DNA of 43,826 bases from an uncultured Hyphomonadaceae bacterium (GCA_964442925.1 CAYUEM010000001.1:1-43826); one strand, 5' to 3'. Shown: positions 2,591 to 41,619, counted from the first letter of the stretch. The notes: a model not told the origin generated them from the letters alone. Numbers and translations are program-made.

Positions 2591-2743
2591 TATTTTTTCT
2601 GTTTTGTTGGGTTAGGCTGTGGGGGCGCAAAGGCGTCTCGCGTCTTCCGTTTCCGGGCAGATGGGGTGCCGCGTCAGACAGGTGCGTGTGCCGTGCAAGA
2701 GATATCTCGCCATAACCAGCCAAATCAGGCTAGACTGCCCGTT

Positions 2744-4747
2744 ATGAAGGGTATGACGGAAAACCAATGGTCTGCGCCTGATCCGGCGGCACCGGTTTCG
2801 CCGCCAGCGCACCCGGCCGTAAGTGTTCATCACGCCATGGACACCGCGCGCGGCGCAGGCAGCTGGCTGCCTTGGACGGGTCTGGTTCTGGCGGTCTGCT
2901 GGTGGGCTTGCGTCGCCGTCAGTCTGGTCACGGTGCTCGACCTTGACGCGATCATGCGCCAGCCTCCGGTCACGCTCGCAGCCGGCGCTCTGCTGGCACT
3001 GATGCCCGGAATGCTGCTGCTGATGGCGGGTTTCATGGCGCGTGAAAGCGCACGTGCCGGCGCCGCCAACGCGCTTGTGCTGCAGGCAGCCGACCAGTTG
3101 CTTTCCCCTGCTGCGCGTATTGGCGAGCACGCAAATACGCTCGCCGGCCAACTCGCCGCCAGCACGGAAGAGATCAATCAGGCAATGAACCGGGCGCTGT
3201 CTTCGATGAAGGCCATGGCCGGAGAAATCGGCGATGAGCGGATGCGGCTGGAATCGGTCAGCTATGCGACCGCCGACAATGCGCGCGAACTCTCCACACA
3301 ACTGACACGCGAACGCGAAGCACTGGAAAGCCTCGCACGCGAATTGAAGGCGCAGGGCGAAGCCGTCGCACAGGCGATCCCGCGGCAGGCCGAAGCGATG
3401 GTTGACGCCTCACGCCAGGCCGGCGAAGATATCCGTCGCGCCGATGATGCGCTGGATGGAAGGCTTCAGCACCTGCAAGCCACCCGCGGTGAGATTGGCC
3501 GCCAATTGCAGCAGCTTGAGCAGATCACAGCCAGCGCCGGAGAAAAGAGCGAAGGGCTGATGTTCGCCATCGCCCGGATTCAGGAAAAGCTCGAACAGTC
3601 CGAACAGATGGTCAAGGCTGCCGTTCGCTCGGGCGAGGTTGCCGCAGCTGCTGCCGGTTCGACCGGGGACGCCCTGCGCGCGGCTGTCGATACCGCGCTG
3701 GATGGTGCGCGCAGGGCCAGTCAGGACATCGAGGCCAGCACCCGCGCTGCGCAGGCCGAGACGGCGCGCGCACTTGATGGCCTGCACCGAAAGGCTGAGG
3801 ATGTCGCCGCTGCGATCCGCGCTGCCGGCATGGCCGCGCGCGCAGAAACCGACATTACTGAACAGCGCCTGGCGAAGGTCTCCAGCGCTTTCCGCTCCGC
3901 CGTGTCTGGGCCGCCCGACTCACAGCCGCAGCGCGCCGCCGACACGACGCAAGCCGCGTCCCGATCCGCAGAGGCTGCCGACCCGCCCCCCGAGGCTCTT
4001 CCGATATCTGGTGAGCGCAAACCCGGCATATCCGGAGCGATCGACGCGCCGCCGCGACAGGTTGACGAAGACCTGTTCGAGACCCTGTCACGTGACCGCG
4101 CGGCGCACGCAGAAGACGAGGCGCGCGGCGAGGAAATCGCCATTGGCTGGCCACGCAAGAGCGGAAATGCGCCGGGCAGTTTCTCGGAGATTTTCGACCC
4201 TGACCCCGCTGCCACGTCCGGCCCCGCAGCGCCTGCGCCTGGCTTTGGGCCGACCGAAGCGCCCGACCCCAGCAATGTGGTGCGGATGTCGCGTGCGCCG
4301 GTCGGTGAGACGCCTCCCATAAACAAGGATGCCGGCTGGACCAGCATTCTGTCAGACATGGACCGTTCGGCAGCCGGCCAGCTGCCACGCGAAGACACCG
4401 CTGAGGAAGTCATCTCGCGGCTGGAAACCTCTGGCATCGCGCTGGCCAGTATTTTCCGCCCCCGCGACAAGAAGAAGATTGCGCTGGCCTCACGCAAGGG
4501 CGAGCGCCTGCGCAGGGCGGCAATCCTCAGCGCAGCAAAAGGCGAGGTCGACCGGGTCGAGAAACGTCTCAAAGCGGACGATTATCTCTGCCAGCTGGCA
4601 ATGGACTTCCACGCGATGGAAGAACCGGACGCAATTGCCGCGCTCGACCGGACCCAGAAATCCAGCCGCAATGCCAGCCCGCGCCTTTCCGCTTTCCTGC
4701 TGCTGGATGCTGCGCTGAGCGAAGAGCGGATGCAGGATTTCGGCTGA
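2744..4747 (+). CDS. Membrane-anchored coiled-coil / Ala-Pro-rich protein, function unknown
   Basis: Long ORF. Hydrophobic segments (LVLAVCWWACVAVSLVTVL, LLALMPGMLLLMAGFMA) are followed by about 300 aa of heptad-like Ala/Glu/Arg/Gln-rich sequence, then a Pro/Ala low-complexity region and a conserved-looking C-terminal domain. Start uncertain (2666, 2744 or 2753). Confidence 0.6.
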   Translation: MKGMTENQWSAPDPAAPVSPPAHPAVSVHHAMDTARGAGSWLPWTGLVLAVCWWACVAVSLVTVLDLDAIMRQPPVTLAAGALLALMPGMLLLMAGFMARESARAGAANALVLQAADQLLSPAARIGEHANTLAGQLAASTEEINQAMNRALSSMKAMAGEIGDERMRLESVSYATADNARELSTQLTREREALESLARELKAQGEAVAQAIPRQAEAMVDASRQAGEDIRRADDALDGRLQHLQATRGEIGRQLQQLEQITASAGEKSEGLMFAIARIQEKLEQSEQMVKAAVRSGEVAAAAAGSTGDALRAAVDTALDGARRASQDIEASTRAAQAETARALDGLHRKAEDVAAAIRAAGMAARAETDITEQRLAKVSSAFRSAVSGPPDSQPQRAADTTQAASRSAEAADPPPEALPISGERKPGISGAIDAPPRQVDEDLFETLSRDRAAHAEDEARGEEIAIGWPRKSGNAPGSFSEIFDPDPAATSGPAAPAPGFGPTEAPDPSNVVRMSRAPVGETPPINKDAGWTSILSDMDRSAAGQLPREDTAEEVISRLETSGIALASIFRPRDKKKIALASRKGERLRRAAILSAAKGEVDRVEKRLKADDYLCQLAMDFHAMEEPDAIAALDRTQKSSRNASPRLSAFLLLDAALSEERMQDFG

Positions 4748-10361: not shown

Positions 10362-10497
10362 GATCGCCTGACCGCTTGTAGGCCCTTCTTTGACCGATCA
10401 CCAGAGCCAGCCTTGGCGCAATGACAGTGATTTAAGCCGCGCAAGGGTGGCCGTAGGGCCGTGCGGGACATATCATGTTACTGAGGGGGACCTTCTG

Positions 10498-11772
10498 ATG
10501 TCATCATTTCTTGCCTATGCCCCGCTTAACGCGTCCAGTCCGGTTGCCTGTTATCTCGCAGTGCGCGACCAGACGACCGCGCTGGCCACCACGCTTTCAG
10601 ATGCCGACGCCACGGCCCAGTCGATGGAGGATGCCAGCCCGGCGAAATGGCACCTCGCGCACACCACATGGTTCTTCGAGAGTTTTCTGCTCAAGCCGCA
10701 TCTGCCCGGATACGAGGTCTTTGCAGACGGCTATGACTATTTGTTCAATTCCTATTATGAGGGTGCCGGCGAGCGGCATGCCCGTCCCCGCCGGGGGCTG
10801 ATCACACGGCCGGGCCTGGGTGAAATCGGCGACTATCGCGGCCATGTCGATGCAGCGATGCAGCGGCTGATCGAGGCTGGCGGCGACGCTCGCTTGTCGG
10901 GGCTGATCACGCTCGGGCTCAATCACGAACAGCAACATCAGGAATTGTTGCTGACCGATATCCTTCACCTGTTTGCGCAAAATCCGCTGCGGCCTGCGTT
11001 CCGCGATCCTGAACCGCTGGCGCTGGATGCCGGTGCCCCTCCTGGGCCTGACTATTTCCCGTATCAGGGCGCGATCGCCCGGATCGGCCATTCCGGCGAA
11101 GCTTTCGCATTTGACTGCGAAAGCCCGCGCCATGACGTTCTGCTTGCGCCTTTCGAGCTTGCTGCGCGCGCTGTCACCAATGGTGAATGGATCGATTTCA
11201 TCGCCGATGGCGGTTATCAAAACCCGCACATCTGGCTGTCGGACGGCATCGCCCGGGTGCGCGAAGCCGGCTGGAAGGCCCCGCTCTACTGGCAGAACCG
11301 CGATGGTGAATGGTGGTCGATGACCCTGCGTGGTTTCCAGCCCGTCGATCCGGCTGCGCCGGTCTGCCATGTCAGTTTTTACGAGGCCGAAGCCTTCGCC
11401 CGCTGGGCTGGCGCGCGATTGCCAACCGAGGCGGAATGGGAGGTTGCAGCCAGCACTGTGCCGGTTGATGGCAATTTCGCATCCACAGGCCGCCTGCGAC
11501 CGCGTGCGCAGACGGGTCTGGGTGCGTATCCGGCTGGCCTTTTCGGCGATGTCTGGGAATGGACTGCCAGCGCCTTTCTGCCCTATCCCGGCTATCGCCC
11601 CCTGCCGGGAACGGTCGGCGAATACAATGGCAAGTTCATGAGCGGCCAGATGGTGCTGCGCGGCGGCAGTTGTGCCAGTCCGCAGGGACATCTGCGCGCC
11701 AGCTACCGCAATTTCTTCCCGCCCGACAAACGCTGGCAATTTTCCGGCGTCCGGCTTGCGCGCGACGGCTAA
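10498..11772 (+). CDS. egtB: Ergothioneine biosynthesis sulfoxide synthase EgtB (DinB_2 + FGE-sulfatase domains)
   Basis: DinB-like N-domain ([32 protein letters not shown]) and a C-terminal FGE-sulfatase-like domain ([25 protein letters not shown]). Followed by egtD. ATG at 10498 preferred to TTG at 10390. Confidence 0.85.
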
Positions 11773-11800
11773 CGCGCGCGTCTCAGCGAAAGAGGACCAG

Positions 11801-12745
11801 ATGACAGATAAGGATGCGCCGGCGGCTGACCCCGCCTTCCAGCAGAATGTGCTTGAGGGACTTGCAAGGCCGCAAAAGGCAATCTCCTCGCGCTGGCTTT
11901 ATGATGAGATCGGCTCGCATCTGTTCGAACAGATCACACAGCTGGATGAATACTATCCCACGCGCACCGAGGCGGCGATCTTTCAGGCGGCCCGCAGCGA
12001 AATCGCGCAGGCCTGCGGAGCCGGGGCCGTGATCGTGGAATATGGTGCCGGCGCAGCGATCAAGACGCGGATCCTGCTGGCGGCACTTGAGCGGCCCTGC
12101 GCTTATGTTCCGCTCGATATCTCGGAAGATTTCCTGCACGCGGCGGCGCGCGATCTGGCGCGGGATTTTCCCGGTCTCGATATCCACCCGATCGCAACCG
12201 ACTTCATGACACACACGGACCTGTCGCAGCTGCCCGATTGCGGCGGGCGCCGTATCGGGTTCTTTCCCGGCTCGACGATTGGCAATCTGACCGATGCGCA
12301 GATCGGTGTGTTCCTGACCGAGGCACGCCGCGCACTTGGCCCGGATGCGCGCTTCCTGCTGGGCGTCGATCTGCGGAAATCGCCGGAAATTCTCATTCCC
12401 GCCTATGATGATGCACGCGGTGTGACCGCCGCCTTCAACCTCAACCTGCTGCAGCGCATCAACCGCGAGCTTGGCGCTGATTTCGATATCGCCGCATTCG
12501 CACATGAGGCGCGATGGAATGATGCAGAAAGCCAAATCGAGATGCATCTCGTCGCAAGGCAGGCGCTGCGCGTGCATCTGGCTGGCCTGACGTTCGAGTT
12601 TTCCGCGGGCGAGAGCATACTGACCGAAATTTCCCGCAAGTTCGAAATCGCATCGCTTGCCCGGCTGGCCGCGCAAAGTGGCTGGACGCTGGACCGGCAA
12701 TGGAGCGATCCGGCCAATTATTTCTGCGTCGCCCTGCTGAGCTGA
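11801..12745 (+). CDS. egtD: L-histidine N-alpha-methyltransferase EgtD
   Basis: EgtD-type sequence (KAISSRWLYDEIGSHLFEQITQLDEYYPTRTE, VEYGAGAAIKTRILL, FFPGSTIGN). ATG at 11801 follows AAAGAGGA; the upstream extension from 11672 overlaps egtB. Confidence 0.85.
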   Translation: MTDKDAPAADPAFQQNVLEGLARPQKAISSRWLYDEIGSHLFEQITQLDEYYPTRTEAAIFQAARSEIAQACGAGAVIVEYGAGAAIKTRILLAALERPCAYVPLDISEDFLHAAARDLARDFPGLDIHPIATDFMTHTDLSQLPDCGGRRIGFFPGSTIGNLTDAQIGVFLTEARRALGPDARFLLGVDLRKSPEILIPAYDDARGVTAAFNLNLLQRINRELGADFDIAAFAHEARWNDAESQIEMHLVARQALRVHLAGLTFEFSAGESILTEISRKFEIASLARLAAQSGWTLDRQWSDPANYFCVALLS

Positions 12746-12755
12746 AGCCGCGGCG

Positions 12756-12784
12756 TTGACAGCCTGCCGGCTTCTGGTTCTTAA
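12756..12784 (+). promoter_or_regulatory. Weak sigma-70-like promoter candidate upstream of the RyR/protease operon
   Basis: TTGACA at 12756-12761, a 17-nt spacer, then TCTTAA at 12779-12784, in the 83-bp gap between egtD and the 12829 ORF. The -10 match is poor. Confidence 0.2.
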
Positions 12785-12828
12785 CTGTTCGGTAAGGGAA
12801 TGGGGGAAACCGGGCGGGGAGCCGGGAC

Positions 12829-14865
12829 ATGGCGTCAGAAGATGGCAAGACACGGCAAACCCGCTTCGGCGCGATGGGACAGCGCAGTGTTTGGGATGTG
12901 CCGATCGGCTGGCTGCTGATTGGCGGCGTTATGGCGATTGTGCTGGCCTTTGCCGGCTGGATGAGCGTGCTGCGTCCACAGGAAACCGGCCTGGCGCGGA
13001 TCGGCGAGGCGGTCTATCGCGCTCTTGCCGTCAACACCATGTCCGACATCTATTCCCGGCCGATGAACGACGCGGATCTCGATCCTTCTGCGCCCGCTTA
13101 CGGCTTTTTCCTGCTGACACTGGCGCGCTGGATTGGTGCCCTGGTGTTTTTCCTGACCCTTGCCAAAGTCGTCGTCCGCCTGTTCTGGCAGAATGTCCTG
13201 ACCTGGTGGGCAAGTCGTTTCTACAGCGATCATGTCGTGATTGCCGGCGACCGGCCATTTGCCCGCCATGCCGCTGAGGAAGCGGTGCGAAAGGGGCTGA
13301 AAGTCGTGCACTTCATGCCGGGTGGCCAGGAATTGGTGCGCGATGGTGTTCTCACTCTGGACAGTGATATCGGCCTTGAGGGCATGCTGCGGCTGTCGGG
13401 TGCGCATCGCGCCCGCTCGCTGGTCTTTGCCTTTTCCGACAATGCCGAAAATGCAGACCTGGCGCGGCGCTGCTTTGTCATGGACGCCTTTTCCGAGGCC
13501 GCAGAGACCCATAAGCGCCGCGAAACCGGCCAGATCGGCCCGCGCGAACGTGTCGGCCCGCACATTTTCGTCATGCTGGATGATGACTGGTTCGAACACC
13601 GCGAAGAGCTCAATTACGCGTTTCACAAAGCCCCCGAAGGCGAGGGCACCACCAGTGGCGGCAAGCTTGACTCCATCGTCGAGATCATCAGCGAAAGCCG
13701 CGCAGCTGCGCGCGCCGTGCTGGGTCGTCACCCGCTTTTCACGCTGCAGGAGGGCGGCATCCAGCATACGCTGCTGCTGGGCTTCGGAACGATGGGCGAA
13801 GCGCTGCTGACGGAGATTTGCGAAAGCCAGCGGATCGACCCGGACCGACCGCAGAAGATCACCATTCTCGATCCTGACCCGGAAAGCTGGGCCCGGTTCG
13901 AGCGGCGCTGTCCAGGCTGGCAGGAGGTGTTCGACGGCGCTTTCTTCCCAGCCCGCCTTGATGCGCCGGGCGTGCACGAAGCCGGCCTTCTGCAGCGTCT
14001 CAATTCAGCGCCATTGACGGCGGCTTATGTCGTGACGGGTGCAAGGCTCGACCCGGTCATTGGCGCTGCGCAGCTCAAACAGTGGCTCGACCAGCAAAGC
14101 GAAGAAGGCCGGCTCGACGCGGAGGATATGGCCTTCCCGGTCTTTGCCTGTGTGCGTGGTGGCTCGGCGCAGTCCGGCCCGCTTGCGGCGCAACAGGTTC
14201 AGATCGCCGGCGATGGTCCGGTTATGGCGCGCCTGCCGATCATCGCCTTCGGAGCCTGGCCGGAAGTGGTCGCCGCCGCGCGCGTTCTTGACGAGGAGCC
14301 CGATGCGGCTGCCTTTCTGGTCCACAGCGTGCACAATCAGCTGTTCAGCCCCGATCCGCCGACAAACTGGAGCCAGGTCGAGGAGGTCAACCGATATTCC
14401 AGCCGGTCAGCTGCCAATTTCATTCCGGCGCTGATCCATGCGGCGGGCTATGACCTTGGTGACTGGCTGAAAGCGAGCGCGCCCCTGCCGCCTTCGATCA
14501 ACCGGTTGCCGAAGATCGCTGCGGGCCGGCAACTGGCCGAAGGCGACAGCGAGGAAATCTATCTCGCCAGGCTGGAACATGCGCGCTGGCGGGCGGAACG
14601 GTTCCTGCGCGGGTTTCGCTGGGCGGAGCAAACGGACAAGCCGCGCCGGCGTCATGCCGATCTGGTTGAGTTTGCGCAACTGCCGGCTGCCGCGCAGGAC
14701 TACAATATCAACTATGTCCGCACCCTCTCCGACAGTTTGCTACCAGCTGCGCGCGGCGCACTTGCGCCTGACCGTCCGGCAGCGCACCGCATCCTGCTGC
14801 GTCCCAGCGACATGGCGTTGGCCGCGCGGTCCAGAACACGAGCGGAGGCGCTTGAAAATGCCTGA
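12829..14865 (+). CDS. Membrane protein with Rossmann (TrkA-N/RCK-like) region and C-terminal RyR-like domain (gene A of candidate system)
   Basis: Two N-terminal hydrophobic helices (IGWLLIGGVMAIVLAFAGWM; FFLLTLARWIGALVFFLTLAKVVV). A degenerate Rossmann start (HVVIAGDRPFARHAAEEAVRKGLKVVHF) and a second with an intact GxGxxG (LLLGFGTMGEAL, about 13771-13800). C-terminal LARLEHARWRAERFLRGFRW...RRHADLVEFAQLP resembles the RyR domain (PF02026). Confidence 0.75.
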   Translation: MASEDGKTRQTRFGAMGQRSVWDVPIGWLLIGGVMAIVLAFAGWMSVLRPQETGLARIGEAVYRALAVNTMSDIYSRPMNDADLDPSAPAYGFFLLTLARWIGALVFFLTLAKVVVRLFWQNVLTWWASRFYSDHVVIAGDRPFARHAAEEAVRKGLKVVHFMPGGQELVRDGVLTLDSDIGLEGMLRLSGAHRARSLVFAFSDNAENADLARRCFVMDAFSEAAETHKRRETGQIGPRERVGPHIFVMLDDDWFEHREELNYAFHKAPEGEGTTSGGKLDSIVEIISESRAAARAVLGRHPLFTLQEGGIQHTLLLGFGTMGEALLTEICESQRIDPDRPQKITILDPDPESWARFERRCPGWQEVFDGAFFPARLDAPGVHEAGLLQRLNSAPLTAAYVVTGARLDPVIGAAQLKQWLDQQSEEGRLDAEDMAFPVFACVRGGSAQSGPLAAQQVQIAGDGPVMARLPIIAFGAWPEVVAAARVLDEEPDAAAFLVHSVHNQLFSPDPPTNWSQVEEVNRYSSRSAANFIPALIHAAGYDLGDWLKASAPLPPSINRLPKIAAGRQLAEGDSEEIYLARLEHARWRAERFLRGFRWAEQTDKPRRRHADLVEFAQLPAAAQDYNINYVRTLSDSLLPAARGALAPDRPAAHRILLRPSDMALAARSRTRAEALENA

Positions 14866-16639
14866 TTATAACAAACTGATTTCCGATGGTGCCGGCACGC
14901 TGGTGCGGTTTCCCTCCGCAAATGACCCGGCTTTTACCCCCGGCGAGACCTATATTTCGGTCACGATCCGACGGATCAGCCTGAAGCGTGGGCGGGTGAA
15001 TTTGCGTAAATACGGGCCTTATGTCTGGGGCGTGCTCGGCCAGACAAGTTTTGACCAGCAGGTTGAACTGGCCGGCGTGTTTGCCCCTGCGCGCGAGGAT
15101 GACATGTTCGCCGGCGCTGCCGGGATCCCCGGTTCACAGGTTGGCGCACCGCTCGCGCAGCCGGAATTTTCCGCCGCCCCGGGGCCGATGCAGGCCGAAA
15201 GCTTTCGCCGGCTCGATCGGATGTTGCTTGTCAATCGCCAGCTGACGCCGCGTCTCGTATTTCAGGATGACGGACCGTTCGAGCTTGGCTTCGGCGCAAT
15301 CCTGCAAAAGGATCATCTCGCAGCGACTCTCAGCCTCGTCGAGCAGGTCGTCAAATCCCCGGTCGCGCAATTTGTCTCTGCGCTGGTGCCGCCGGTCGGC
15401 AAGATCGTAGACAGCGCATCGATTGCGGGCACGGTGCGCCGCCTGCTTGGCCGGCTGGATGACGACAAGGGCGCTGAGCGCCTTGCAGCGGTTTCAACGC
15501 GCCTTTCCCAGTTGCGTAACGAGGGTGGACAGCTGCTGGCGGGCACCTATGCGATGATTGCTGAAGATGATCTGCCCGGCGATCTGCGTTTTGATCCACA
15601 GCGCCAGTTGGTGATGCGTGCCGATACGCCTTTCGAGGATGCGCCGTATCTCGCCTTTGATCTTCAGTGCGAGACCACCCGGCCCGACTGGGGCAGCGTT
15701 CCCGATGTCAATTCGGCCTGGCGCACGCTGGAGGCGCAGGCGATGGATGGCGATGTCGAGGCGGCGCTCGCCAGCTTCCGCAGTGCGGTCTATCTGTCGC
15801 CGGATCTCGTGCCGGCCGACAGTCGCCGCCTGCATGAGGCGGCAAGGCGCAAGCTGGCGCCACTGATGGGCGGCGCGGAAAGCTTCTCGCTCGGCGGGCT
15901 GAAAATGCCGGCGCTGGGCCCGCTCGGCAAGGCGCTGCGCGATTCCTATGAAGAAGTGATGGCTGGTGGGTTTGGCGAGGTCCGCTCGGAATGGGATCGT
16001 TTTCACCGCTGTCATGAGGTGATGCGGATCAATGAGGGCGGTTATGTCGATCATCCGTCCGATCCGGGCGGGGCGACAAACAAGGGTGTGACCCAGGGCA
16101 CCTATGACGCCTGGCGCAAACGCAAGGGCCAACCGCGCCGGCATGTGCGCGAGATCGACGAAGCCGAAGTCATGCAGATCTATTTCGAGGGCTACTGGCG
16201 GGCCGGAAACTGTCACCGCATGCCGAACGAAGCGGTCGCGCTGGTCCTGTTCGACGCCTGCGTGAACCATGGCGCCGGTCCGGCAATGAAATTCATCCAA
16301 CGTGGGGCGGGGCTTAGCCCGCAGGATGTTGATGGCGCATTTGGCCCGCGCACGCTGCGTGCTGTCGAGATGACCGAACCGACGCTGCTGGTTGGCCGCG
16401 CGCTGGATGCGCGCTGGCGTTTCTTCGAGAAGATCATGGCCCGCAATCCGAAACTGGAGGATTTCCGCCGTGGCTGGCGCGCCCGGGTCGACGGGCTGCG
16501 CGCGATCACGCATCAGTGGCTGACCGGACAGGAAAGCGCCCTCGCGCCCCTTCCGGACGTGCTCGCCGAACATATAGCGCCGCCGCAGCTTGATGGAATT
16601 GACGCGGCAGGCCCGGAACATTCGGAGGCTGGATCATGA
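14858..16639 (+). CDS. Leaderless fusion of an unknown N-domain to a GH108 muramidase + PG_binding_3 module (gene B)
   Basis: ATG at 14858 with GGAGG at 14844-14848; it overlaps the gene A stop (ATGCCTGA). The C-terminal INEGGYVDHPSDPGGATNKGVTQGTYD is the GH108 (PF05838) core with the catalytic Glu. The following VDGAFGPRTLRAV...WRFFEKI resembles PG_binding_3. No signal peptide or TM segment is visible, and the first ~400 aa are unassigned. Confidence 0.8.
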   Translation: MPDYNKLISDGAGTLVRFPSANDPAFTPGETYISVTIRRISLKRGRVNLRKYGPYVWGVLGQTSFDQQVELAGVFAPAREDDMFAGAAGIPGSQVGAPLAQPEFSAAPGPMQAESFRRLDRMLLVNRQLTPRLVFQDDGPFELGFGAILQKDHLAATLSLVEQVVKSPVAQFVSALVPPVGKIVDSASIAGTVRRLLGRLDDDKGAERLAAVSTRLSQLRNEGGQLLAGTYAMIAEDDLPGDLRFDPQRQLVMRADTPFEDAPYLAFDLQCETTRPDWGSVPDVNSAWRTLEAQAMDGDVEAALASFRSAVYLSPDLVPADSRRLHEAARRKLAPLMGGAESFSLGGLKMPALGPLGKALRDSYEEVMAGGFGEVRSEWDRFHRCHEVMRINEGGYVDHPSDPGGATNKGVTQGTYDAWRKRKGQPRRHVREIDEAEVMQIYFEGYWRAGNCHRMPNEAVALVLFDACVNHGAGPAMKFIQRGAGLSPQDVDGAFGPRTLRAVEMTEPTLLVGRALDARWRFFEKIMARNPKLEDFRRGWRARVDGLRAITHQWLTGQESALAPLPDVLAEHIAPPQLDGIDAAGPEHSEAGS

Positions 16640-19600
16640 GTTTCGACACCACTCTCAACCCCGCAGAAGAGCGCGCCGAGTTCGAGGCTGCGCGCGCCGC
16701 ACTGATGGGGCTGGGACGCGAGGAGGCCCGGATCGACGCCATCGAAGCGGTGGCGCGGCTTGTTGGAGAGGCTGATGATCTGGGTGCTGAGGGCTCTGCG
16801 GAACTGCTCAGCGTCGCACAGACACTGCAGGACCGGCGCGCATTCGGGCTCATGCTTGTGCTGTGTCTGCTTGCGCGTCAGGCCGGTCTTGCCACTCCGA
16901 AACTGCGCCAGAAGGAAGTGCAGGCGCTGATCGAGCTTGGCCGGCTTGAAGAAGCCGTGCGCGAGGCGCGGGCACTGGCCGAACTGACGCGCAGCGCGCA
17001 GCCCGATGATCCCGCAGAGACTGCCAACTGGGCATTGTGGCGCACCGCACAGGGCAATATCGGGCGCGCCTACAAGCAGGCCTATGTCAATGCCGCGCTG
17101 GCCATGGCGGCAGGCGAAGGCGGCGACCGACAGCCCGATCCGCAGGACCTGAAAGCGGCGGTCGAAACCTACAGGGCCGTCTGGGAGCGCCATCAGGGTC
17201 CGGGCACGACTTATCATTGCGTCAATGCGGCAACGCTGATCATTCGCGCGGTGCGTGATCGTGCGACCGGTCGTGAAGGAGACTTCAGCTGGGCGCTTGA
17301 GGAAGATGCGCGCCGTCTGGCCGGGGACATCCTTCGCACGCATGAGAAAGAACTGCGCGCCGCGCTCGCGCCGGGGCCGCAAGCGGGCGGCGATGTCTGG
17401 ACGCTGGCAACCTGCGGGGAAGCCTATCTGGTTCTCGGACTGATGGAGGATGCAGCCCTTTGCTATGGTGCCTATGCGGGCCTTAAGGACGCGGATGCCT
17501 TCGAGATCGGCTCATCGCTGCGCCAGCTTGAGCAGGTCTGGCTGTTCGACGGCAAACGCGATGATGCTGGTGGGCGGATCGTGCGCCTGTTGAAAGGGGC
17601 ACTGCTCAATCTCGAACCGCGCGGCGCGGGCAGGGCGGCGCTGGATATCCAGCGCGAAAGCGTTGTTCTGTCACCACAGGAGGCCGGGCTGATGCGGGCC
17701 GACCTTGAAGGGCGTGAGACGATCGGCGAGGGCCCACCGCGTGACGGCTATGAAGCCTATTTCCAGAAGCGCGGTGCCGCGCGGGCGGCCGGAGGCATGG
17801 TCGATCTCGCCCGCATCCTCTCGGCTGCCGCCCGGGCACAGAGCGTCTGCGCAATCGAGACGCTGCAGGATGGCCGCTGGCAGAGGATTGGCACCGGTTT
17901 CGCCGTCAGGGGCGATGTGTTGCATGATGACTGGGGCGATCTCGACCTGATCATGTCCAATCATCACGTCGTGGCCCAGTCCGACGGCGCGCTGTCGAGT
18001 TCCTATCGCCGCTGCCGGGCCAACTTCGTGGAGTATGATCCGGTGTTGCAGGCCGAGCATGAACATCCGGTCTATTTCGATGACATCCTGTGGCGCTCCG
18101 GCGAGCGGGCAATGGACACGGCGGTTCTGGTGCCGCGCGGCAAACTGCCGGATGTGGCGCGGATCATCACCCGGGATGAAACCTCCAATTACCTGCCGAA
18201 GCGACCCGTGGATGGCGTCGACGGCACGGAAATGCATGTCGTGATCCTCGGCTTTCCCGGCGGCGGGGATATGCAGCTGTCATATGGTGACGAGATGCTG
18301 CTTGATCACAATGCCTGCGAGCCTGGCGCGCTTCCCGACCCTCAGCGGACCCTCAACGGCCAGCCTGTGCGCCTGCACTACCGCACGCCGAGCCGACCGG
18401 GCAGTTCCGGCAGTCCGGTCTTCATGGCCGGAAGCTGGGAACTGGTCGGCATACACCATCGCGGCCAGCGCGACTGCCCGCGCCTGCCGCCAAAACAAAG
18501 CACCTATGAGGCGAATGAAGGCATCTGGCTGCCATCGATCCGTGCGGCCATTCGCCGGGCCAGCCTGAAACTGGGCTCAGCCGATACGCCCGATTCCGGC
18601 GAGCCGCTGCCGGCGTCCGGCCACGCGCCGCAGGGGGAGCTGTTTGGTGCGGCGGCTGCGGCTTATCGCACGCTGCGCAATGCCATACCGGATGCCAGCG
18701 CCCTGCCGCGTCCGCGCGCATCTGAGCATGGCGGCCAGGTCAGCGCTGGTTCGGCCCCGGTGATCGGACGGCCCATCGGCACGGCGCGGCAAGCGGCCGG
18801 GGGCGTGCCACGCGGCGGCCTCGACATTCCGGGGCACACGGTTTTCCTCGCGCAATATGACAATGGCGATGTGGCGGATCGCTATTTGAAGCCGGGCCAT
18901 TTTCGCGGTGAAATGGAGCAGTTTCGCGCCCGCACACAGGGCTTTGAGACCGTGATCGGTGATGACAACCGCACCCAGATCCACGACACGGGTGCCGACC
19001 CGTTCCGGATGATCTGCGCGCTTGTCGTGCACTGGCCGCACATGCCGCCGACCAGCGGAACCGGCTTTCTGGTGGGCCAGCGCACAGTGCTCACTGCGGG
19101 CCACTGCATCCTGCCCGGACCGGGCTTTCCAGACCCTGCAGCGATCGAGGTGCGTCCGGGCCGGTCCGGCACAAGGGAGCCCTTTGCCGATACGCTGGGC
19201 GCGCTGGCAGCCGAGCGGATTTCGCTGCATACGCAATGGTCGGCGCGGTTTGATCCGCGCTTTGATGTCGGAGCGATCCATCTCGACAAGCCGGCAGGTG
19301 AGACCGTCGGCTGGTTCCGTGTCGGCGTGCGCGATCCCCAGCTGCTGACACGCCACTGGGCGCATGTCACCGGCTATCCCGGCGACAAGATCACGCAGGG
19401 TGCCGGTGAAGCGGGCGGAGCGCTCTATGCCGCCGAGCAATGGCACCATGCCACACCGATTGCGCAAGTGCATGACGGGCGCGTCTATTATCCTGCCGAT
19501 ACATTTGCCGGACAGAGCGGCGCACCCGTCTACATCCTCGATCAGGCCGATGGCCTTGCCACCGTGATCGGCGTGCATGCCTATGGTGTCGGTCCGAATG

Positions 19601-19689
19601 CGGGCGCTTTCGCGATGGAGAACAATTCCGCCGCGTGGATTGATGCGGCGATGCTGCAGGTGATATCAGACTGGAGGAATGTGGCATGA
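16636..19689 (+). CDS. TPR-like helical domain + two trypsin-fold serine protease domains (gene C)
   Basis: ATGA overlap with gene B and GGAGG at 16624-16628. The N-terminal ~350 aa are all-helical (DVWTLATCGEAYLVLGLMEDAALCYGAYAG is TPR/DUF4071-like). Protease 1 has SNHHVV (His), MDTAVLV (Asp) and GSSGSPVF (Ser, about 18400-18423). Protease 2 has LTAGHCI (about 19090), FDVGAIHL and AGQSGAPVY (about 19507-19533), V8/Glu-endopeptidase-like. Confidence 0.8.
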   Translation: MSFDTTLNPAEERAEFEAARAALMGLGREEARIDAIEAVARLVGEADDLGAEGSAELLSVAQTLQDRRAFGLMLVLCLLARQAGLATPKLRQKEVQALIELGRLEEAVREARALAELTRSAQPDDPAETANWALWRTAQGNIGRAYKQAYVNAALAMAAGEGGDRQPDPQDLKAAVETYRAVWERHQGPGTTYHCVNAATLIIRAVRDRATGREGDFSWALEEDARRLAGDILRTHEKELRAALAPGPQAGGDVWTLATCGEAYLVLGLMEDAALCYGAYAGLKDADAFEIGSSLRQLEQVWLFDGKRDDAGGRIVRLLKGALLNLEPRGAGRAALDIQRESVVLSPQEAGLMRADLEGRETIGEGPPRDGYEAYFQKRGAARAAGGMVDLARILSAAARAQSVCAIETLQDGRWQRIGTGFAVRGDVLHDDWGDLDLIMSNHHVVAQSDGALSSSYRRCRANFVEYDPVLQAEHEHPVYFDDILWRSGERAMDTAVLVPRGKLPDVARIITRDETSNYLPKRPVDGVDGTEMHVVILGFPGGGDMQLSYGDEMLLDHNACEPGALPDPQRTLNGQPVRLHYRTPSRPGSSGSPVFMAGSWELVGIHHRGQRDCPRLPPKQSTYEANEGIWLPSIRAAIRRASLKLGSADTPDSGEPLPASGHAPQGELFGAAAAAYRTLRNAIPDASALPRPRASEHGGQVSAGSAPVIGRPIGTARQAAGGVPRGGLDIPGHTVFLAQYDNGDVADRYLKPGHFRGEMEQFRARTQGFETVIGDDNRTQIHDTGADPFRMICALVVHWPHMPPTSGTGFLVGQRTVLTAGHCILPGPGFPDPAAIEVRPGRSGTREPFADTLGALAAERISLHTQWSARFDPRFDVGAIHLDKPAGETVGWFRVGVRDPQLLTRHWAHVTGYPGDKITQGAGEAGGALYAAEQWHHATPIAQVHDGRVYYPADTFAGQSGAPVYILDQADGLATVIGVHAYGVGPNAGAFAMENNSAAWIDAAMLQVISDWRNVA

Positions 19690-20045
19690 AGAAGAGCCCT
19701 GAAGCGGAACATCTGACGGCGATCGCACGCACTGTGCATGAGGCCGTTCGGGCATGGTCGGCCGCAAACGGCCAGAAGCCGATCCCACACTGGAACCGCG
19801 CACCGGCGTGGATGCGCGCATCGACCCGTGAAAGCGTCCAATTCACAATCAACAACCCCGAAGCCCCTGACAGCGCGCAGCACGACCAGTGGATGGAGCA
19901 AAAGCTGCGTGACGGCTGGGTCCATGGCAAGGTCAAGGATGCTGGCAAGAAGACCCATCCGATGCTGGTGCCTTATGAACAGTTGCCGGACATGGAAAAG
20001 CGCAAGGACGCTCTTTTTCGCGCCATCGTGCAGGCACTGGTGTGA
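19686..20045 (+). CDS. Standalone RyR-domain protein (gene D)
   Basis: ATGA overlap with gene C and GGAGG at 19673-19677. IARTVHEAVRAWSAANG...WMEQKLRDGWVHGKVKDAGKKTHPMLVPYEQLPDMEKRKD matches the RyR domain signature (GW.yG...d...K.HP.LVPY.eLp..eK.kD). Confidence 0.8.
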   Translation: MKKSPEAEHLTAIARTVHEAVRAWSAANGQKPIPHWNRAPAWMRASTRESVQFTINNPEAPDSAQHDQWMEQKLRDGWVHGKVKDAGKKTHPMLVPYEQLPDMEKRKDALFRAIVQALV

Positions 20046-28217: not shown

Positions 28218-28934
28218 CTAAACCTGCAGGAATTGTGGCACATGTCCGGGTGCGAGAAGCACCGCCGTCAACGGGCCACCATAACACGCGCCGGTGTCAA
28301 TATTGATCCGCCGGCCATCGTCGGAGACATCAAGGCAGAAATCATCCGGCGGTGTGTGGCCGTGAATGACGCGCTGACCAGTCAGTGCGGGAGCGGTCCA
28401 GAATGCAGTGTCAAAGAACCGGGGCGCGCGGGTCCAGAGATAGACCTCTTCGCTTTCGCCGGGATATTGTTCGGGATGCACCCCGGCATGCACGAAGATC
28501 AGATCGTGTTCGGCGACGCAATGCAGCCGGGGCCGGGTTTTCAGCCAGTCCAGATCCGCTTCAGGCACCGTCTGTGCACGCAGATAACTTTCCAGGGTCG
28601 CGATGCCGCCATTGATAGCCCAGTGGCGCAATGCGTCGCCTTCATTTTCAAGTGCGTCAATCATCATCTGTTCGTGATTGCCCATCAGGCAGACGAGTTC
28701 GAGATCTTCACGTCCAGCCGCATCCGTTTCCATTTGTCTCAGCCGCGCGATCACACCGGCGCTGTCGGGACCGCGATCGACATAATCGCCGAGATGCACC
28801 AGCGTCAGGGCGGCGCCGGGGTGCTGGTCTGCAACCGCCGCAAATATTTCCGCATGCAGGGCCGCAAGGCGTTCGGCATGGCCGTGAATGTCGCCGATCG
28901 CGACATGGATTCGGCTGGTGCGGGAATCTGGCAC
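28218..28934 (-). CDS. Metallophosphoesterase (PPP-family Ser/Thr phosphatase / ApaH-like)
   Basis: GDIHGH, GDYVDRGPDS and GNHE motifs. Confidence 0.8.
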   Translation of the reverse strand: MPDSRTSRIHVAIGDIHGHAERLAALHAEIFAAVADQHPGAALTLVHLGDYVDRGPDSAGVIARLRQMETDAAGREDLELVCLMGNHEQMMIDALENEGDALRHWAINGGIATLESYLRAQTVPEADLDWLKTRPRLHCVAEHDLIFVHAGVHPEQYPGESEEVYLWTRAPRFFDTAFWTAPALTGQRVIHGHTPPDDFCLDVSDDGRRINIDTGACYGGPLTAVLLAPGHVPQFLQV

Positions 28935-29026
28935 GAGACTTGCTCCTCATGGCGGGAGTGTTGAACTCCATCATCAATACCTGTCTCGCCCCGGCCCTTT
29001 TTCACAAGGACCGGGGCTTTTTTCCA

Positions 29027-38388: not shown

Positions 38389-40176
38389 ATGAGCGAATAC
38401 ACTTGGAACGATCACACTTATGACGTGGTTGTCGTCGGCGCGGGTGGCTCGGGATTGCGCGCTGCGCTCGGTGCGGCCCAGGCGGGGCTGAAAACCGCCT
38501 GCATTTCGAAAGTGTTTCCGACCCGCTCTCACACCGTGGCGGCCCAGGGTGGGATTGCTGCCTCTCTCGGCAACATGTCGGTCGATGACTGGCGCTGGCA
38601 CATGTATGACACTGTGAAAGGGTCTGACTGGCTCGGCGATCAGGATGCGATCGAATATCTCTGTCGCAACGCACCGGAAGCTGTTTACGAGCTCGAACAC
38701 TGGGGCATGCCCTTCTCGCGTACCGAGGAAGGCAAGATCTATCAGCGTGCCTTTGGCGGCATGACCAAGAATTTCGGTGAAGGCCCGGTGCAGCGCACCT
38801 GCGCCGCCGCCGACCGAACCGGCCATGCCATGCTGCACACGCTGTATGGCCAGGCACTCAAGAACGAGACCGAGTTTTTTATTGAGTATTTTGCTCTCGA
38901 CCTGATCATGGACGAGGAAGGCGCATGTCGCGGTGTGACGGCGTGGAAGCTCGATGATGGCACGCTGCACCGTTTCCGCGCGCAAAAGACAATCCTTGCC
39001 ACCGGCGGCTATGGCCGGGCCTTCTTTTCTTGCACATCGGCTCACACCTGCACCGGTGATGGCAACGCGATGGCCCTGCGCGCCGGGCTGCCGCTCCAGG
39101 ATATGGAATTCGTGCAGTTCCACCCGACCGGCGTTTATGGTGCAGGCTGCCTGATCACGGAAGGTGCTCGGGGCGAGGGTGGCTACCTCACAAATTCCGA
39201 GGGTGAGCGCTTCATGGAACGCTACGCGCCCAGCGCCAAGGATCTCGCTTCACGCGATGTCGTGTCGCGCGCGATGACAGTCGAGATCCGCGAAAAGCGT
39301 GGCGTCGGCGAGGAAGGTGATCACATCTACCTGAATCTCGACCACTTGCCGCCGGCAACACTGGCCGAGCGCCTGCCGGGCATTTCCGAAACGGCGCGGA
39401 TTTTTGCCGGGGTTGATGTCACAAAAGCGCCCATCCCGGTGCTGCCGACGGTGCATTACAATATGGGCGGCATTCCGACCAATTATCATGGCGAAGTGCT
39501 GACCAAGGCAAATGGCGATCCCGACCATGTCGTTCCCGGCCTGATGGCTGTCGGCGAGGCGGCCTGTGTGTCCGTGCACGGTGCCAATCGCCTTGGTTCA
39601 AATTCGTTGATCGATCTGGTTGTGTTCGGACGTGCTGCCGGACTGCAATGCGGTGCATCTGTCGATGCCGGCGCAAGCCAGCCGGAAATGCGTGACGCCT
39701 TGACCGAGCGTCACCTGACGCGGTTCGACCGGATGCGCCATGCCGCAGGGGACCAGCCCGTTGCGACGCTGCGCCTTGAGATGCAAAAAGCGATGCAGGA
39801 AAACTGCGCGGTCTTCCGCACCGGCGATATCCTGCGCGAGGGTGTGGAGCGGATCGACGGTGTTTACGGAAAACTTCCGGGGGTTGATGTCCGTGATCGC
39901 GGCATGATCTGGAACACTGATCTGATCGAAGCTCTCGAATTCGACAATCTGATTGCCCAGGCTGCTGTCACAGTCAACTCAGCGGCCAATCGCGAGGAAA
40001 GCCGTGGCGCTCATGCGCGCGAGGATTTCTCCGAGCGCGATGACGAACAGTGGATGAAGCACACACTCGCCTGGATCGATCCTGCCGGAAAGGTGACACT
40101 CGATTACCGCCCGATCCATGATTTCACGATGTCGAATGATATCGGATATATCGAGCCGAAGGCGCGGGTTTACTGA
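38389..40176 (+). CDS. sdhA: Succinate dehydrogenase flavoprotein subunit
   Basis: [18 protein letters not shown]-binding motif, [10 protein letters not shown] (covalent FAD His) and [11 protein letters not shown]. Confidence 0.95.
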
Positions 40177-40254
40177 CCTCGACCTGACCTGCGCGCAGCT
40201 TTGTTTTTGCGGATGATCCTTTGGCGGGTTGCTGCAAAAGCGTCGTCAGGTTTT

Positions 40255-40300
40255 CCTCATCCTGAGGAGCGGCCGGCAAGGCCGCGTCTCGAAGGATGAG
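40255..40300. repeat. REP-like nested palindromic intergenic element
   Basis: CTCATCCT (40257-40264) and AGGATGAG (40293-40300) flank an inner GCGGCC...GGCCGC hairpin. Its translation gives the AAPQDEE-type pseudo-peptide commonly produced by alphaproteobacterial intergenic repeats. Confidence 0.55.
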
Positions 40301-40482
40301 CTGCGTGGCCTGGTTTTTCAGCAGCCTGTTAAAGGCGCGGGCTTTCATCAGGTTGTCTCATCGCGAGGCGCGAGCAAAGCGCGCCTTGACGAAACGCCGA
40401 AGCCCTGAACACCCCATATTAACCACTTGGTTGTATTCCACTTCAGATAGAGTTCCACACAACCCAAGAGCGTTTTATTGCC

Positions 40483-41541
40483 ATGACAACAGCAACAGCA
40501 GTCCAAGCGCAGGTCGAGCCCGAGGCCGAACAGGTCGTTGATCCCTATACGCTGGCGCTTGACGTTTTCAGGCTGGTCAAGGCTCATGCGACGCCTCCCT
40601 TTCCGAACACATACGCGCTTTGGTATGCATATGTTTCCGGGTCCAACCCCGAAATCATCACCGAAATAGACGAGAAAGCAAAGCGCGGCGACATCATCAG
40701 CCCTTATGATATCAATCAGCTTTGCGAAACATATCTTACCGCCGAAGACAGGGAAGCCAAGCAAGCCGAGATCAGTCAGGAACTTGAGCGCGGGATGGTC
40801 AAAGCGCTCAAATTCTTTGATCAGGGCGTCAAGCAAGGCAGCGTATTTGCTGATCGGGTTGGCTCAATTTCCAGCGCGCTGAAGGAGCCGGGCAGTGACC
40901 ATAATGAGCTGCTCGACAGACTTATGGACGAGAACAAGAAAATGCTCGGCTCGTCTCAGGCCCTGAAAGACTGCATGCTGGCAGCACGCGACCATATCCA
41001 GGAACTGACCAAACGACTGACCGAGATCAGCGATGAAAGTCTTCGCGATGGCCTGACAGGCGTGGCAAACAGACGCGCTTTCAACCGAAAACTGGCCGAA
41101 GCCTTCGAGCGCGCCATGAACGAACGGCATAACCTGTGCCTGGTGCTTGCCGACCTCGACCACTTCAAAAGCGTCAATGATACTTATGGCCATCAGGCTG
41201 GCGACAGTATCTTGCAGGCGTTTGCCAAACTGCTCGTTGAAAACGTCAAAGGTGGCGACACCGTGGCGAGATATGGGGGCGAAGAATTTGCGATCATTCT
41301 TCCTGAGATTTCCACGTTCGACGCTCACAATCTGATGACCCAGATCCGACATAAATATTCCAAGCTGCGGATGCGGGAACGCAAGAGCAAGGCGGAAATA
41401 ACCAGGCTGACGGCTTCTTTTGGTATCAGCTGCATGCACGATGTCGATTCTCCGGAGGATATGATCAGCCGCGCCGATGAACTGCTTTACCAGGCCAAGG
41501 ATGCCGGGCGAAACACGGTTAAAACAGAATTTTCCAGTTGA
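40483..41541 (+). CDS. Diguanylate cyclase (GGDEF domain) with N-terminal helical sensor-like domain
   Basis: DGLTGVANRRAF, LADLDHFKSVNDTYGHQAGD and RYGGEEFAIIL (active-site GGEEF). Confidence 0.88.
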   Translation: MTTATAVQAQVEPEAEQVVDPYTLALDVFRLVKAHATPPFPNTYALWYAYVSGSNPEIITEIDEKAKRGDIISPYDINQLCETYLTAEDREAKQAEISQELERGMVKALKFFDQGVKQGSVFADRVGSISSALKEPGSDHNELLDRLMDENKKMLGSSQALKDCMLAARDHIQELTKRLTEISDESLRDGLTGVANRRAFNRKLAEAFERAMNERHNLCLVLADLDHFKSVNDTYGHQAGDSILQAFAKLLVENVKGGDTVARYGGEEFAIILPEISTFDAHNLMTQIRHKYSKLRMRERKSKAEITRLTASFGISCMHDVDSPEDMISRADELLYQAKDAGRNTVKTEFSS

Positions 41542-41619
41542 TGCGAAAATTTGTTTTGATTGGCACTGAAGCTACCGGTCGCAAGGCGAAGATCAAATCA
41601 AATCCGGCCTTCGGGAATT

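Follow-up and report, generated by a model that had tools for sequence, protein, structure and literature searches.

A conserved four-gene chromosomal operon of uncultured marine Hyphomonadaceae with a channel-like RCK-RyR protein and a phage-sponge-type RyR protein: a candidate self-lysis or abortive-infection-like switch

The described systems closest to the locus reported here are the Thoeris systems and the ryanodine receptor (RyR) domain proteins that act on their signals. Type X Thoeris consists of a TIR protein and an 'ion channel' effector, type II has a Macro-transmembrane (Macro-TM) effector, and in type I SLOG is the domain of ThsA that binds cyclic ADP-ribose (cADPR), a molecule that has also long been linked to RyR gating (bioRxiv 10.64898/2025.12.03.692087). 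RyR domains bind the Thoeris signals 2'/3'-cADPR: RyDEP, with residues H75, W78, H100 and D117, cleaves the ribose-ribose bond of 2'/3'-cADPR, RyR-Tad, with residues H129/W132, K147/H154 and K170/D171, sponges glyco-cyclic ADP-ribose (gcADPR), RyR-Tad and sponge-type RyDEP homologues have nanomolar affinity for gcADPR or cADPR, and both RyDEP and RyR-Tad dimerise via alpha1/alpha4 (PMC13232231; bioRxiv 10.64898/2026.06.04.730250). In animals, the RY12 domain of RyR1 is an ADP sensor that binds ADP/ATP, and its prokaryotic homologues include 'putative tetrameric cation channels'. Here we describe an operon of four genes, labeled A to D (12829-20045), in a 43,826-nucleotide stretch of DNA from an uncultured Hyphomonadaceae bacterium (GCA_964442925.1 CAYUEM010000001.1:1-43826), referred to below as the window. 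The original prediction for this stretch, which was made from the sequence alone, stated that the function of bacterial RyR domains is unresolved; this is out of date, since papers from 2026 assign roles to phage RyR proteins and the function is no longer wholly unresolved. We tentatively read the operon, with a confidence that falls somewhat short of even, as a resident, vertically inherited and regulated self-lysis or abortive-infection-like suicide switch. The caution is due to the ligand source, the trigger and the export step, all of which are missing, and to a locus that behaves like core genome.

All four genes lie on the plus strand as open reading frames (ORFs) whose stops and starts overlap: gene A (12829-14865, 678 amino acids), gene B (14858-16639, 593 amino acids counted from the ATG at 14858), gene C (16636-19689, 1017 amino acids) and gene D (19686-20045, 119 amino acids). 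The longest ORF for gene B opens at 14579, but 20 of 20 orthologues align from the Met at 14858. Read directly from the sequence, the A/B junction is ATGCCTGA at 14858-14865, and the B/C and C/D junctions are both ATGA (16636-16639 and 19686-19689). The motif GGAGG occurs 8-9 nucleotides before each internal start, at 14844-14848, 16623-16627 and 19673-19677. Four overlapping same-strand ORFs with GGAGG 7-9 nucleotides before each downstream start had been claimed in the original prediction, and both the coordinates and the measured spacing bear this out; its description of the set as bracketed by RyR domains is likewise accurate, with one RyR domain in the C terminus of A and the other in D. 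The G+C content is level across A-D (0.62-0.66).

Between the stop of egtD (12745) and the start of gene A lies a promoter-like or leader motif (12756-12798, plus strand) that consists of TTGACA, 17 nucleotides, TCTTAAC and then GGTAAGGG. The copy in the window was read by eye. A related motif, TTGAC[AT]-N17-19-C(C)TT..A(A)C-N4-8-G[GT]TAAGGGG, which as a regular expression did not match the window copy, was found once per locus at related loci, directly before the first gene of the module (position 6105 in locus L001, 7781 in L003, 6122 in L005, 3707 in L010, ~3624 in L011, 530 in L024, and others). Since there is one such motif per locus and it precedes the first module gene, the module is probably a transcription unit separate from egtBD. 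A generic sigma-70 scan gave no match at the promoter-like motif upstream of gene A. An alphaproteobacterial SOS box upstream of A was also considered and was rejected, as the spacing is GTTC-N6-GTTC and not N7, and the element is not kept in orthologues.

An exact look-up of protein C in public assemblies gave no record. Full-length relatives of protein C formed 22 clusters among 5.8 billion proteins, and 17 module loci came to light in a scan that covered one genome for each GTDB species, nine of them labeled as Hyphomonadaceae and eight only as Pseudomonadota or Alphaproteobacteria. The four-gene set appears to be confined to about 17 Hyphomonadaceae species represented by metagenome-assembled genomes, which form an uncultured marine lineage. 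The only additions from a metagenome scan with the A alignment were a further orthologue (L025) and a TrkA_N protein that is unrelated (L026). Wherever contig ends permit, the order A-B-C-D is kept (tblastn with the window proteins against loci from the 17 GTDB species genomes), and both order and coupling are maintained at 47-66% identity of protein C. This arrangement is far beyond chance. The same order across loci, a Rosetta-stone fusion of A to the GH108 domain of B in one variant, and the single promoter-like motif per locus all uphold the earlier view that the four genes form one conserved unit.

The module is always found 3' of the ergothioneine genes egtB-egtD (10390-12745 in the window) and in the same orientation, with rpoN-lptB-lptA-lptC-rnd further upstream; in the window a short-chain dehydrogenase/reductase (SDR) gene follows it, so that the flanking ORFs confirm the predicted site between egtBD and an SDR gene. 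The downstream flank varies between genomes, and the adjacency to egtB-egtD holds even with two inserted genes. With a promoter-like motif belonging to the module itself, and with room for two further genes in between, this adjacency looks historical. A historical accident at a synteny break and a functional link to ergothioneine or to thiol/redox state are both possible origins of it. Pairwise identities of A, C and D are correlated with those of egtB (Mantel r 0.64, 0.81 and 0.76, respectively; 0 of 2000 permutations reached the observed value), and Mantel r for co-divergence with egtB, egtD and rnd ranged from 0.64 to 0.83. Mean pairwise identity was 0.48 for A, 0.56 for C, 0.60 for B and 0.68 for D, versus 0.61 for egtD and 0.70 for egtB, and the module therefore evolves only moderately faster than its neighbors. 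Outside the module, the 43.8-kb window has the content of an ordinary chromosome, with etfBA, hpf, rpoN, lpt genes, sdhA, flhB and glycosyltransferase genes, and no tRNA, Rfam family or integrase was found in it. The fixed locus, the co-divergence with neighboring genes and the housekeeping content of the window establish that the module is resident and vertically inherited and not a mobile island. A resident module free of an integrase, a tRNA or a G+C shift was what the original prediction had proposed, and the co-divergence with egtB, the housekeeping flanks and the level G+C at the module agree with it.

The same features suit another explanation, in which the operon is a housekeeping module for the envelope and for ion homeostasis. 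The RCK-RyR channel would follow the energy or nucleotide state of the cell, for example the ADP/ATP ratio, the proteases and the muramidase would serve wall remodeling in budding, stalk growth or osmotic adaptation, and there would be no suicide or immune role. The constant position after egtBD in all carriers, the co-divergence with egtB, egtD and rnd, a divergence only moderately above that of the neighbors, and the housekeeping nature of all flanking genes speak for such a role; the presence of the module in only about 17 species argues against a general Hyphomonadaceae function. Given this and further points on both sides that arise below with the individual proteins, we consider a housekeeping role unlikely, although it retains a substantial share of our belief.

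Natural variants of the module show which of its parts are dispensable. The L003/L018 lineage has A, C and D only, with no B and no muramidase. In L024 (650-3412; P0045, P0046) A is fused at its C terminus to GH108-PG_binding_3 in a protein of 920 amino acids that is followed by C and D; the fusion protein, P0045, is without the N-terminal domain of B, and its joint falls at the residues 'AESL'. GH108, which one lineage does without and another carries as a fusion with A, stands outside the invariant core. By the comparison of loci, A, C and D make up that core and the muramidase is an accessory output, physically joined to A in one variant. A further group (L010, L011, L017 and L020) has a lipoprotein gene and a stand-alone trypsin-like gene inserted between egtD and A. 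In L011 (3690-5978) these encode a predicted lipoprotein of 456 amino acids (lipobox LAAAGC, no Pfam match) and a trypsin-like protease of 297 amino acids. Since the promoter-like motif precedes the lipoprotein gene in L010 and L011, both extra genes join the operon, and together they hint that the system may extend into the periplasm or the outer membrane.

Gene D (19686-20045, plus strand) encodes a stand-alone RyR protein of the RyDEP/RyR-Tad type, as expected from its earlier description as a 119-residue RyR protein (Pfam RyR, 1.4e-11). Its residues H66, W69, K84, H91, K107 and D108 have a spacing identical to that of the ligand/catalytic residues of RyDEP and RyR-Tad; five of the six were invariant in 19 distinct orthologues and K84 was present in 18 of the 19. 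Residues 14-115 of D were aligned by phmmer to residues 22-125 of PDB entry 35tm, a 139-residue entry that we take, without confirmation, to be RyDEP; the 9-residue offset agrees with the RyDEP numbering. Proteins encoded in 289 phage genomes align with D along its whole length at 41-50% identity, including those of Ruegeria/Silicibacter N4-like and Pectobacterium phages, which are source groups of the characterized sponges, and D matched phrog_5154 at 4e-38. D is thus a host-encoded member of the phage RyDEP/RyR-Tad family. It closes a chromosomal operon flanked by housekeeping genes and is therefore no anti-defense gene; a host-side buffer, an off-switch or a partner of the channel is the likelier role. 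The likeness of D to phage sponges also counts against the housekeeping explanation.

Protein A was modeled with AlphaFold using 20 orthologues (pLDDT 86.7, pTM 0.83). Residues 26-131 (12904-13221, plus strand) contain, according to the model and the alignment, TM1 (26-47), a short pore-helix-like helix (55-69), the motif AxYRALSVNTLSDxY and TM2 (90-131). These are followed by two predicted Rossmann/RCK-like domains (model and Foldseek; residues 136-480, 13234-14268, plus strand) at ~136-300 and 313-480, with HVVIAGD at 135-141 and GFGTMG at 318-323, and then by a helical RY12-type RyR repeat (Pfam, phmmer and alignment; residues 519-640, 14383-14748, plus strand) that carries H584, W587, H609 and Y625-N626. 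The two N-terminal hydrophobic helices, the GFGTMG loop and the C-terminal RyR segment noted earlier were therefore all found. The top Foldseek match in the PDB was GsuK (E 1e-7, probability 1.0), then MthK, TrkA, Slo1/BK, KefC and the DMI1 gating ring; the GsuK entries that were matched had been crystallized with ADP or NAD according to their titles, and a Bacteroides/human RY12 chimera matched the C terminus of A. By the Foldseek comparison a cytoplasmic tandem of RCK (TrkA_N-fold) domains follows TM2, and weak Pfam matches to TrkA_N were seen in the A relatives P0036 and P0072. The modeled architecture resembles that of an RCK-gated, two-TM channel to which a RyR domain has been added. With GsuK and MthK as the best Foldseek matches, the channel-like membrane component proposed in the original prediction gains support, and we infer a channel function for A from its topology and fold.

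The loop between the two TM helices of A reads AxYRALSVNT[LM]SDxY in this lineage, with V68, S72 and Y75 invariant in close orthologues, and TF[GS]DxY in the wider A family, and it has the look of a P-loop that has degenerated. When 1.84 billion representative proteins were searched with a profile, 103 clusters fell into this wider family at E<1e-30, many of them full-length matches of 550-640 amino acids; the A-like architecture is widespread and broadly bacterial. Beyond the RyR domain, the C-terminal tail of A (residues 654-678; 14800-14865) has an invariant R658-P659-x-D661 ('VRPTDxALL'), which is retained in the fusion protein. This motif could be a docking peptide for the TPR-like domain of C, or a cleavage site.

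The RyR match of A in Pfam (residues 579-632) had an E value of 6e-5 and a score of 23.7 bits versus a gathering cut-off of 27.4, and many orthologues carry the match. A phmmer search aligned this region to the RyR3 repeat-1/2 structure (2e-4), and H584 and H609 are invariant. The Y625-N626 pair is that of the animal RyR repeats; at the position of N626, Asp is found in D and across the wider A family. By analogy with animal RY12, the Y-N variant hints at ADP/ATP-type sensing, and an animal-type pair of this kind, known from an ADP sensor, is what a housekeeping channel might carry. D as a recent duplicate of the RyR domain of A was considered and rejected, the two being 27% identical over 37 residues.

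The presence of two RyR domains in one operon allows for a circuit of the toxin-antitoxin kind, in which D constitutively sequesters the ligand or directly clamps the RyR domain of A as a guard and the loss of D, for example by degradation by C, acts as the trigger, with the protease upstream of the channel. D keeps all of the sponge residues, and an A-D heterodimer is structurally plausible because RyDEP and RyR-Tad dimerise via alpha1/alpha4 and A carries a single RyR repeat; the small nucleotide-binding partner near distant A-like genes in four of six contexts (see below) also fits. On the other hand, there is no direct evidence for contact between A and D or for cleavage of D by C, the identity of D to the RyR domain of A is low (27% over the 37 residues aligned), and the ligand source is unaccounted for. 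We regard such a guard circuit as quite improbable.

Protein C is made of a long helical N-terminal domain and two proteases. The N-terminal domain (residues 1-400; 16636-17835, plus strand) is TPR-S-like and is a putative sensor or docking domain; Pfam placed TPR-S (PF20308) at residues 85-201 with 26.0 bits versus a cut-off of 27.6, and 14 of 20 orthologues matched at E<=1e-3, the best at 3e-7. A distant relative, P0023, has TPR-S (62.6 bits) and then Trypsin_2, the same order as in C; its gene context was uninformative. The first S1 protease (residues 419-606; 17890-18453, plus strand) matched Trypsin_2 at 6.9e-19, with H444, D494 and S591 (in GSSGSP) invariant. The second (residues 771-1017; 18946-19689, plus strand; Pfam Trypsin at 809-990) is glutamyl-endopeptidase-like and includes E771, T772-VIGDDNRT, H823, D877 and S961. 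Both His/Asp/Ser triads are invariant in 20 orthologues, and with the Pfam matches this confirms the TPR-like domain and the two trypsin folds with intact Ser loops that had been read from the sequence. C had no relatives in a scan of IMG/VR with the C alignment, and in PHROG it gave one marginal partial match, to phrog_13651 of unknown function (E 1.2e-4).

The start of the second protease domain suggests how it might be controlled. In a profile search its closest solved relatives were the Bacillus intermedius glutamyl endopeptidase 1p3c, V8 protease and the exfoliative toxins. With phmmer (E 4.5e-13) residue 2 of the 1p3c chain was aligned to V773, and the mature N terminus of 1p3c therefore corresponds to T772, which is preceded by E771. 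E771 and I774-R779 are invariant, within the pattern G-[FY]-E-[TS]-[VI]-I-G-D-D-N-R. In glutamyl endopeptidases the freed N-terminal amine reportedly completes the Glu-binding S1 site. From the alignment, the second protease of C would be a built-in zymogen that becomes active once it, or the first protease, cuts after E771. The linker before it (residues 640-770; 18553-18945) differs widely between orthologues, in length as well as in sequence (alignment columns ~700-800), and ends in GFE|TVIGDDNR. Such a linker would fit a disposable tether or propeptide. A pair of S1 proteases in the cytoplasm, joined in a zymogen-like way, suggests a switch that cannot be reversed, which is not what would be expected of a housekeeping module.

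Gene B combines an orphan domain with a muramidase. Its N-terminal domain (residues 1-338; 14858-15871, plus strand) is predicted to be beta-rich, with a model pLDDT of ~80-90 in the beta core; homologues were found only within this lineage, and searches of the PDB and BFVD gave no significant fold match, only non-significant beta-sandwich or C2-like ones. A linker predicted to be disordered follows (residues 339-376; 15872-15985, plus strand; pLDDT <50), in which 'AESF' is a candidate Glu-specific cleavage site. The only invariant residues of the linker in 20 orthologues are E341, F343 and L360, and the joint of the natural A-GH108 fusion P0045 ('AESL') coincides with this motif. As a conserved Glu in a disordered linker, encoded beside the gene of a Glu-specific protease, E341 is the best candidate for a licensing cleavage. 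The C-terminal 200 residues hold a canonical GH108 N-acetylmuramidase core with PG_binding_3 (Pfam, PDB and Foldseek; residues 392-543, 16031-16486, plus strand). The Pfam matches (GH108 at 392-472, 3.3e-26; PG_binding_3 at 476-543, 1.2e-10) leave in place the earlier reading of a GH108 core and a PG_binding_3-like tail, and the catalytic E393 (in NEGG) and the DPGG motif are invariant. In the PDB, B matched NMB1012 and Brucella SagA (~4e-21), with SagA as the best structural match, and the Foldseek matches were SagA and phage ZliS/TtsA-like lysozymes; all significant matches fell on the GH108 half. SagA is a physiological muramidase, and a GH108 protein of this kind as the best match of B suits a housekeeping role.

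No hydrophobic segment was found in B and no signal-arrest-release (SAR) or signal sequence, and there is no holin in the operon. Hydrophobicity prediction found no TM segment in B, C or D, and none of the three has a signal-peptide-like N terminus as judged by eye. Since B, C and D are without a TM segment or a visible export signal, all four proteins most probably act from the cytoplasmic side. The muramidase would then be on the wrong side of the membrane for wall remodeling, a further point against the housekeeping explanation.

The phage affinities of B and D raise the possibility of a domesticated phage lysis or anti-defense cassette, in which a captured GH108 endolysin and a RyR sponge lyse a subpopulation of cells to release particles, DNA or public goods, with A permeabilizing the membrane. 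The catalytic half of B matched the endolysin family phrog_315 (4e-40), phage lysozymes in BFVD (up to 39% identity) and, weakly, the NCBIfam 'holin-associated N-acetylmuramidase' (57 bits versus a cut-off of 240), and D has its matches to phrog_5154 and to 289 phage genomes. Yet the neighborhood has no further phage genes and no integrase, tRNA or att-like repeat, no relatives of C were found in IMG/VR, A has no PHROG match and C only the partial one, A is unlike a holin, one lineage dispenses with GH108, and the A-like family is broadly bacterial. A phage origin of this sort seems to us a poor prospect, on a par with the guard circuit.

Our preferred reading, the suicide switch, would have two branches at the cytoplasmic face of the membrane, an RCK/RyR channel buffered by D and a sensor-protease that releases a muramidase. 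In the first branch, A would form a tetrameric cation channel of the GsuK/MthK type whose C-terminal RY12-type RyR domain responds to a ligand that is either an adenine nucleotide or derived from ADP-ribose. D would bind, and perhaps hydrolyze, the same class of ligand and so buffer or reset the signal, in the way of type III CRISPR ring nucleases; alternatively, D would pair with the single RyR repeat of A. In the second branch, C would be a cytoplasmic sensor-protease in which a TPR-S-like domain and an S1 protease precede the glutamyl-endopeptidase-like zymogen, which cleavage after E771 would free by exposing its N terminus. B would be a latent muramidase, its GH108/PG-binding half being released by a Glu-specific cut at AE|SF. 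The output would be membrane depolarization together with peptidoglycan hydrolysis, leading to self-lysis, likely as an abortive-infection-like or stress-triggered suicide.

Some of the setting for this reading comes from distant A-like genes, of which six contexts were examined, a small sample. In L027 (6844-10378) a CBASS-type patatin gene (PADLOC phospholipase effector, 2e-44), an A-like gene and a gene for a protein of 170 amino acids have 4-nucleotide overlaps, and this trio adjoins genes for an nSTAND1 protein and a STAND-like protein with an FGE-sulfatase domain (faint AAA_16). L032 (4552-10297) has a divergent TIR_2-WD40 gene, then an A-like gene and a gene for 167 amino acids, and L033 (2400-8914) has a DUF4062-STAND-TPR gene, a RyR gene whose product of 134 amino acids shares 46% identity with D, and then an A-like gene; DUF4062 is presumably TIR-like. 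In L035 (661-3110) an A-like gene is followed by a gene for 180 amino acids, and in the two further contexts no obvious partners were seen. The three small downstream proteins (167-180 amino acids) gave sub-threshold and concordant matches to the SLOG-family members YAcAr, YpsA and DprA (E 4e-4 to 8e-3), and a small RyR or weakly SLOG-like partner was thus present beside four of the six distant A-like genes. In a separate observation, L035 and L036 (samples ERR6290775 and ERZ10759729) share samples with the module contigs L001 and L002, and hold a second A-like gene, 26% identical, with a weakly SLOG-like small downstream gene.

Within this small sample, the pairing of an A-like protein with a small, putatively nucleotide-binding protein appears to be recurrent, and the contexts seem to link the A family to nucleotide-signaling conflict systems. 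The distant A-like proteins had no match in PADLOC v2 and may represent an undescribed family of nucleotide-gated channel effectors. That A-like genes adjoin TIR, STAND and patatin genes speaks against a housekeeping role, and these neighbors, along with the close homology of D to phage anti-Thoeris RyR proteins, point indirectly to a conflict-type role for the operon.

Several observations weigh against a suicide switch. The operon encodes no signal generator such as a TIR protein or a cyclase, and there is no TIR in the 43.8-kb window (a Pfam scan of A-D and 30 selected other window ORFs gave no match to TIR, TIR_2 or DUF4062). The module has no defense-island context, mobile element or patchy distribution, and it co-diverges with housekeeping genes, which is unusual for defense systems. 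A, B and D had no match in PADLOC-DB v2, and C gave only marginal, partial protease matches (E 2e-6 to 8e-4), which is also in keeping with the statement in the original prediction that no named system has this gene set. With respect to A, the pore has no support at sequence level: there was no Ion_trans_2 match (Pfam at E<=10), an hhalign comparison with KcsA, MthK and NaK gave a probability of 0.65%, the same as a reversed control, and the Foldseek match may rest mostly on the RCK domains. The ligand of its RyR domain may differ from those of RyDEP and RyR-Tad, because the Asp shared by these two and by the wider A family is replaced by Asn in A. No folded muramidase can leave the cell through a cation channel, the operon encodes no holin, SAR or signal sequence, and the N-terminal domain of B matches no known fold. 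Finally, lysis cannot be the core function of the module, because GH108 is missing in the L003/L018 lineage.

The component families, namely RyDEP-type RyR, RCK channel-like, GH108 and S1B protease, are known; the combination of the four parts, the zymogen-like fusion and the chromosomal fixation were not described in the sources searched, and literature searches on TPR-S, on RyR with trypsin, and on SLOG/RyR/TRPM gave nothing relevant. It is tempting to generalize to A and its wide family as RyR-gated cation channels, bacterial counterparts of RyR signaling by nucleotides and effectors for ADP-ribose-derived or adenine-nucleotide signals, and to host D-like proteins as the ancestral off-switches from which phage sponges derive. 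The operon would then be a system of a new kind, a protease-armed, TIR-less lysis switch in which such a channel is tied to a zymogen-type protease cascade that licenses a muramidase, fixed in the core genome, but we hold this wider picture to be doubtful. If true, the operon would provide a tractable bacterial model for a RY12/RyR domain on a channel, where cADPR/ADP sensing has long been debated in animal RyRs. It would also supply a host-side setting for the phage RyR proteins used against Thoeris, with a bearing on the origin of the sponges and on signal buffers built into bacteria. The arming of a cell-wall hydrolase by a Glu-specific protease of the cytoplasm, through a zymogen-like junction in the protease and a conserved site to match in the hydrolase linker, would be unreported, and conflict-type machinery would be seen to stay fixed for long at a core-genome locus, where surveys limited to defense islands would miss such modules.

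Elsewhere in the window, the G+C content dips to 0.51-0.55 at 40001-42000, versus ~0.61 elsewhere, which may reflect a more recent acquisition. The dip spans a GGDEF diguanylate-cyclase gene (40483-41541) that also has a weak match to the Cas10/Cmr2 palm domain. The ORFs at 2666-4747 (plus strand, 693 amino acids) and 28233-28964 (plus strand, 243 amino acids) had no Pfam match at E<=1e-4, and the first of these overlaps other candidate ORFs on both strands.

Compared with described systems part by part, D shares with RyDEP and RyR-Tad the PF02026 fold family and the H-x2-W...K...H...K-D spacing, with the residues at matching positions, and differs in that its gene belongs to a conserved chromosomal operon of the host bacterium and not to a phage. 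A resembles GsuK and MthK (PDB 4gx0-4gx5, 6u68) in its predicted TM1, short helix, TM2 and two RCK-like domains in one chain, but is without a TVGYG-type filter or a detected similarity to K+-channel pore profiles, and has the additional C-terminal RyR domain. Like the animal ryanodine receptors, A is channel-like and has a RY12-type domain with H, W, H and a Y-N pair; unlike them it is a smaller, two-TM protein with a single repeat in place of tandem pairs and with RCK gating, and no common ancestry of the pores is implied. B has the GH108 and PG_binding_3 domains with a catalytic Glu, no visible signal peptide and a membrane protein encoded beside it, in the manner of holin-endolysin pairs and SagA. 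It differs in its orphan N-terminal domain of 340 residues and its putative protease site, A as a 678-residue RCK protein is not a holin, and the module is chromosomal and ancient in its lineage. The second domain of C aligns with the S1B glutamyl endopeptidases (1p3c, V8) from the mature N terminus VIGDD.RT through the triad, but lies in the cytoplasm with a TPR-S-like domain and another protease fused in front of it, so that the 'propeptide' amounts to 771 residues of regulatory protein.

As a whole, the module is closest to Thoeris, in logic and not in its genes. In type X and in type II (Macro-TM) the effector in the membrane is controlled through a cytoplasmic domain to which an NAD-derived nucleotide binds, as A might be through its RyR domain, and the distant A-like genes adjoin TIR or TIR-like genes. 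With regard to the residues expected of a Thoeris-signal binder, A has H584, W587 and H609, with N626 standing at the Asp position, and D has the full set. The module departs from Thoeris in having no TIR or other signal generator, which is the defining component and leaves it outside that system, in not being located in a defense island or showing a patchy or mobile distribution, and in adding two proteases and a muramidase. By analogy, the module most resembles the signal-gated membrane-effector systems Thoeris II and X, combined with a lysis enzyme.

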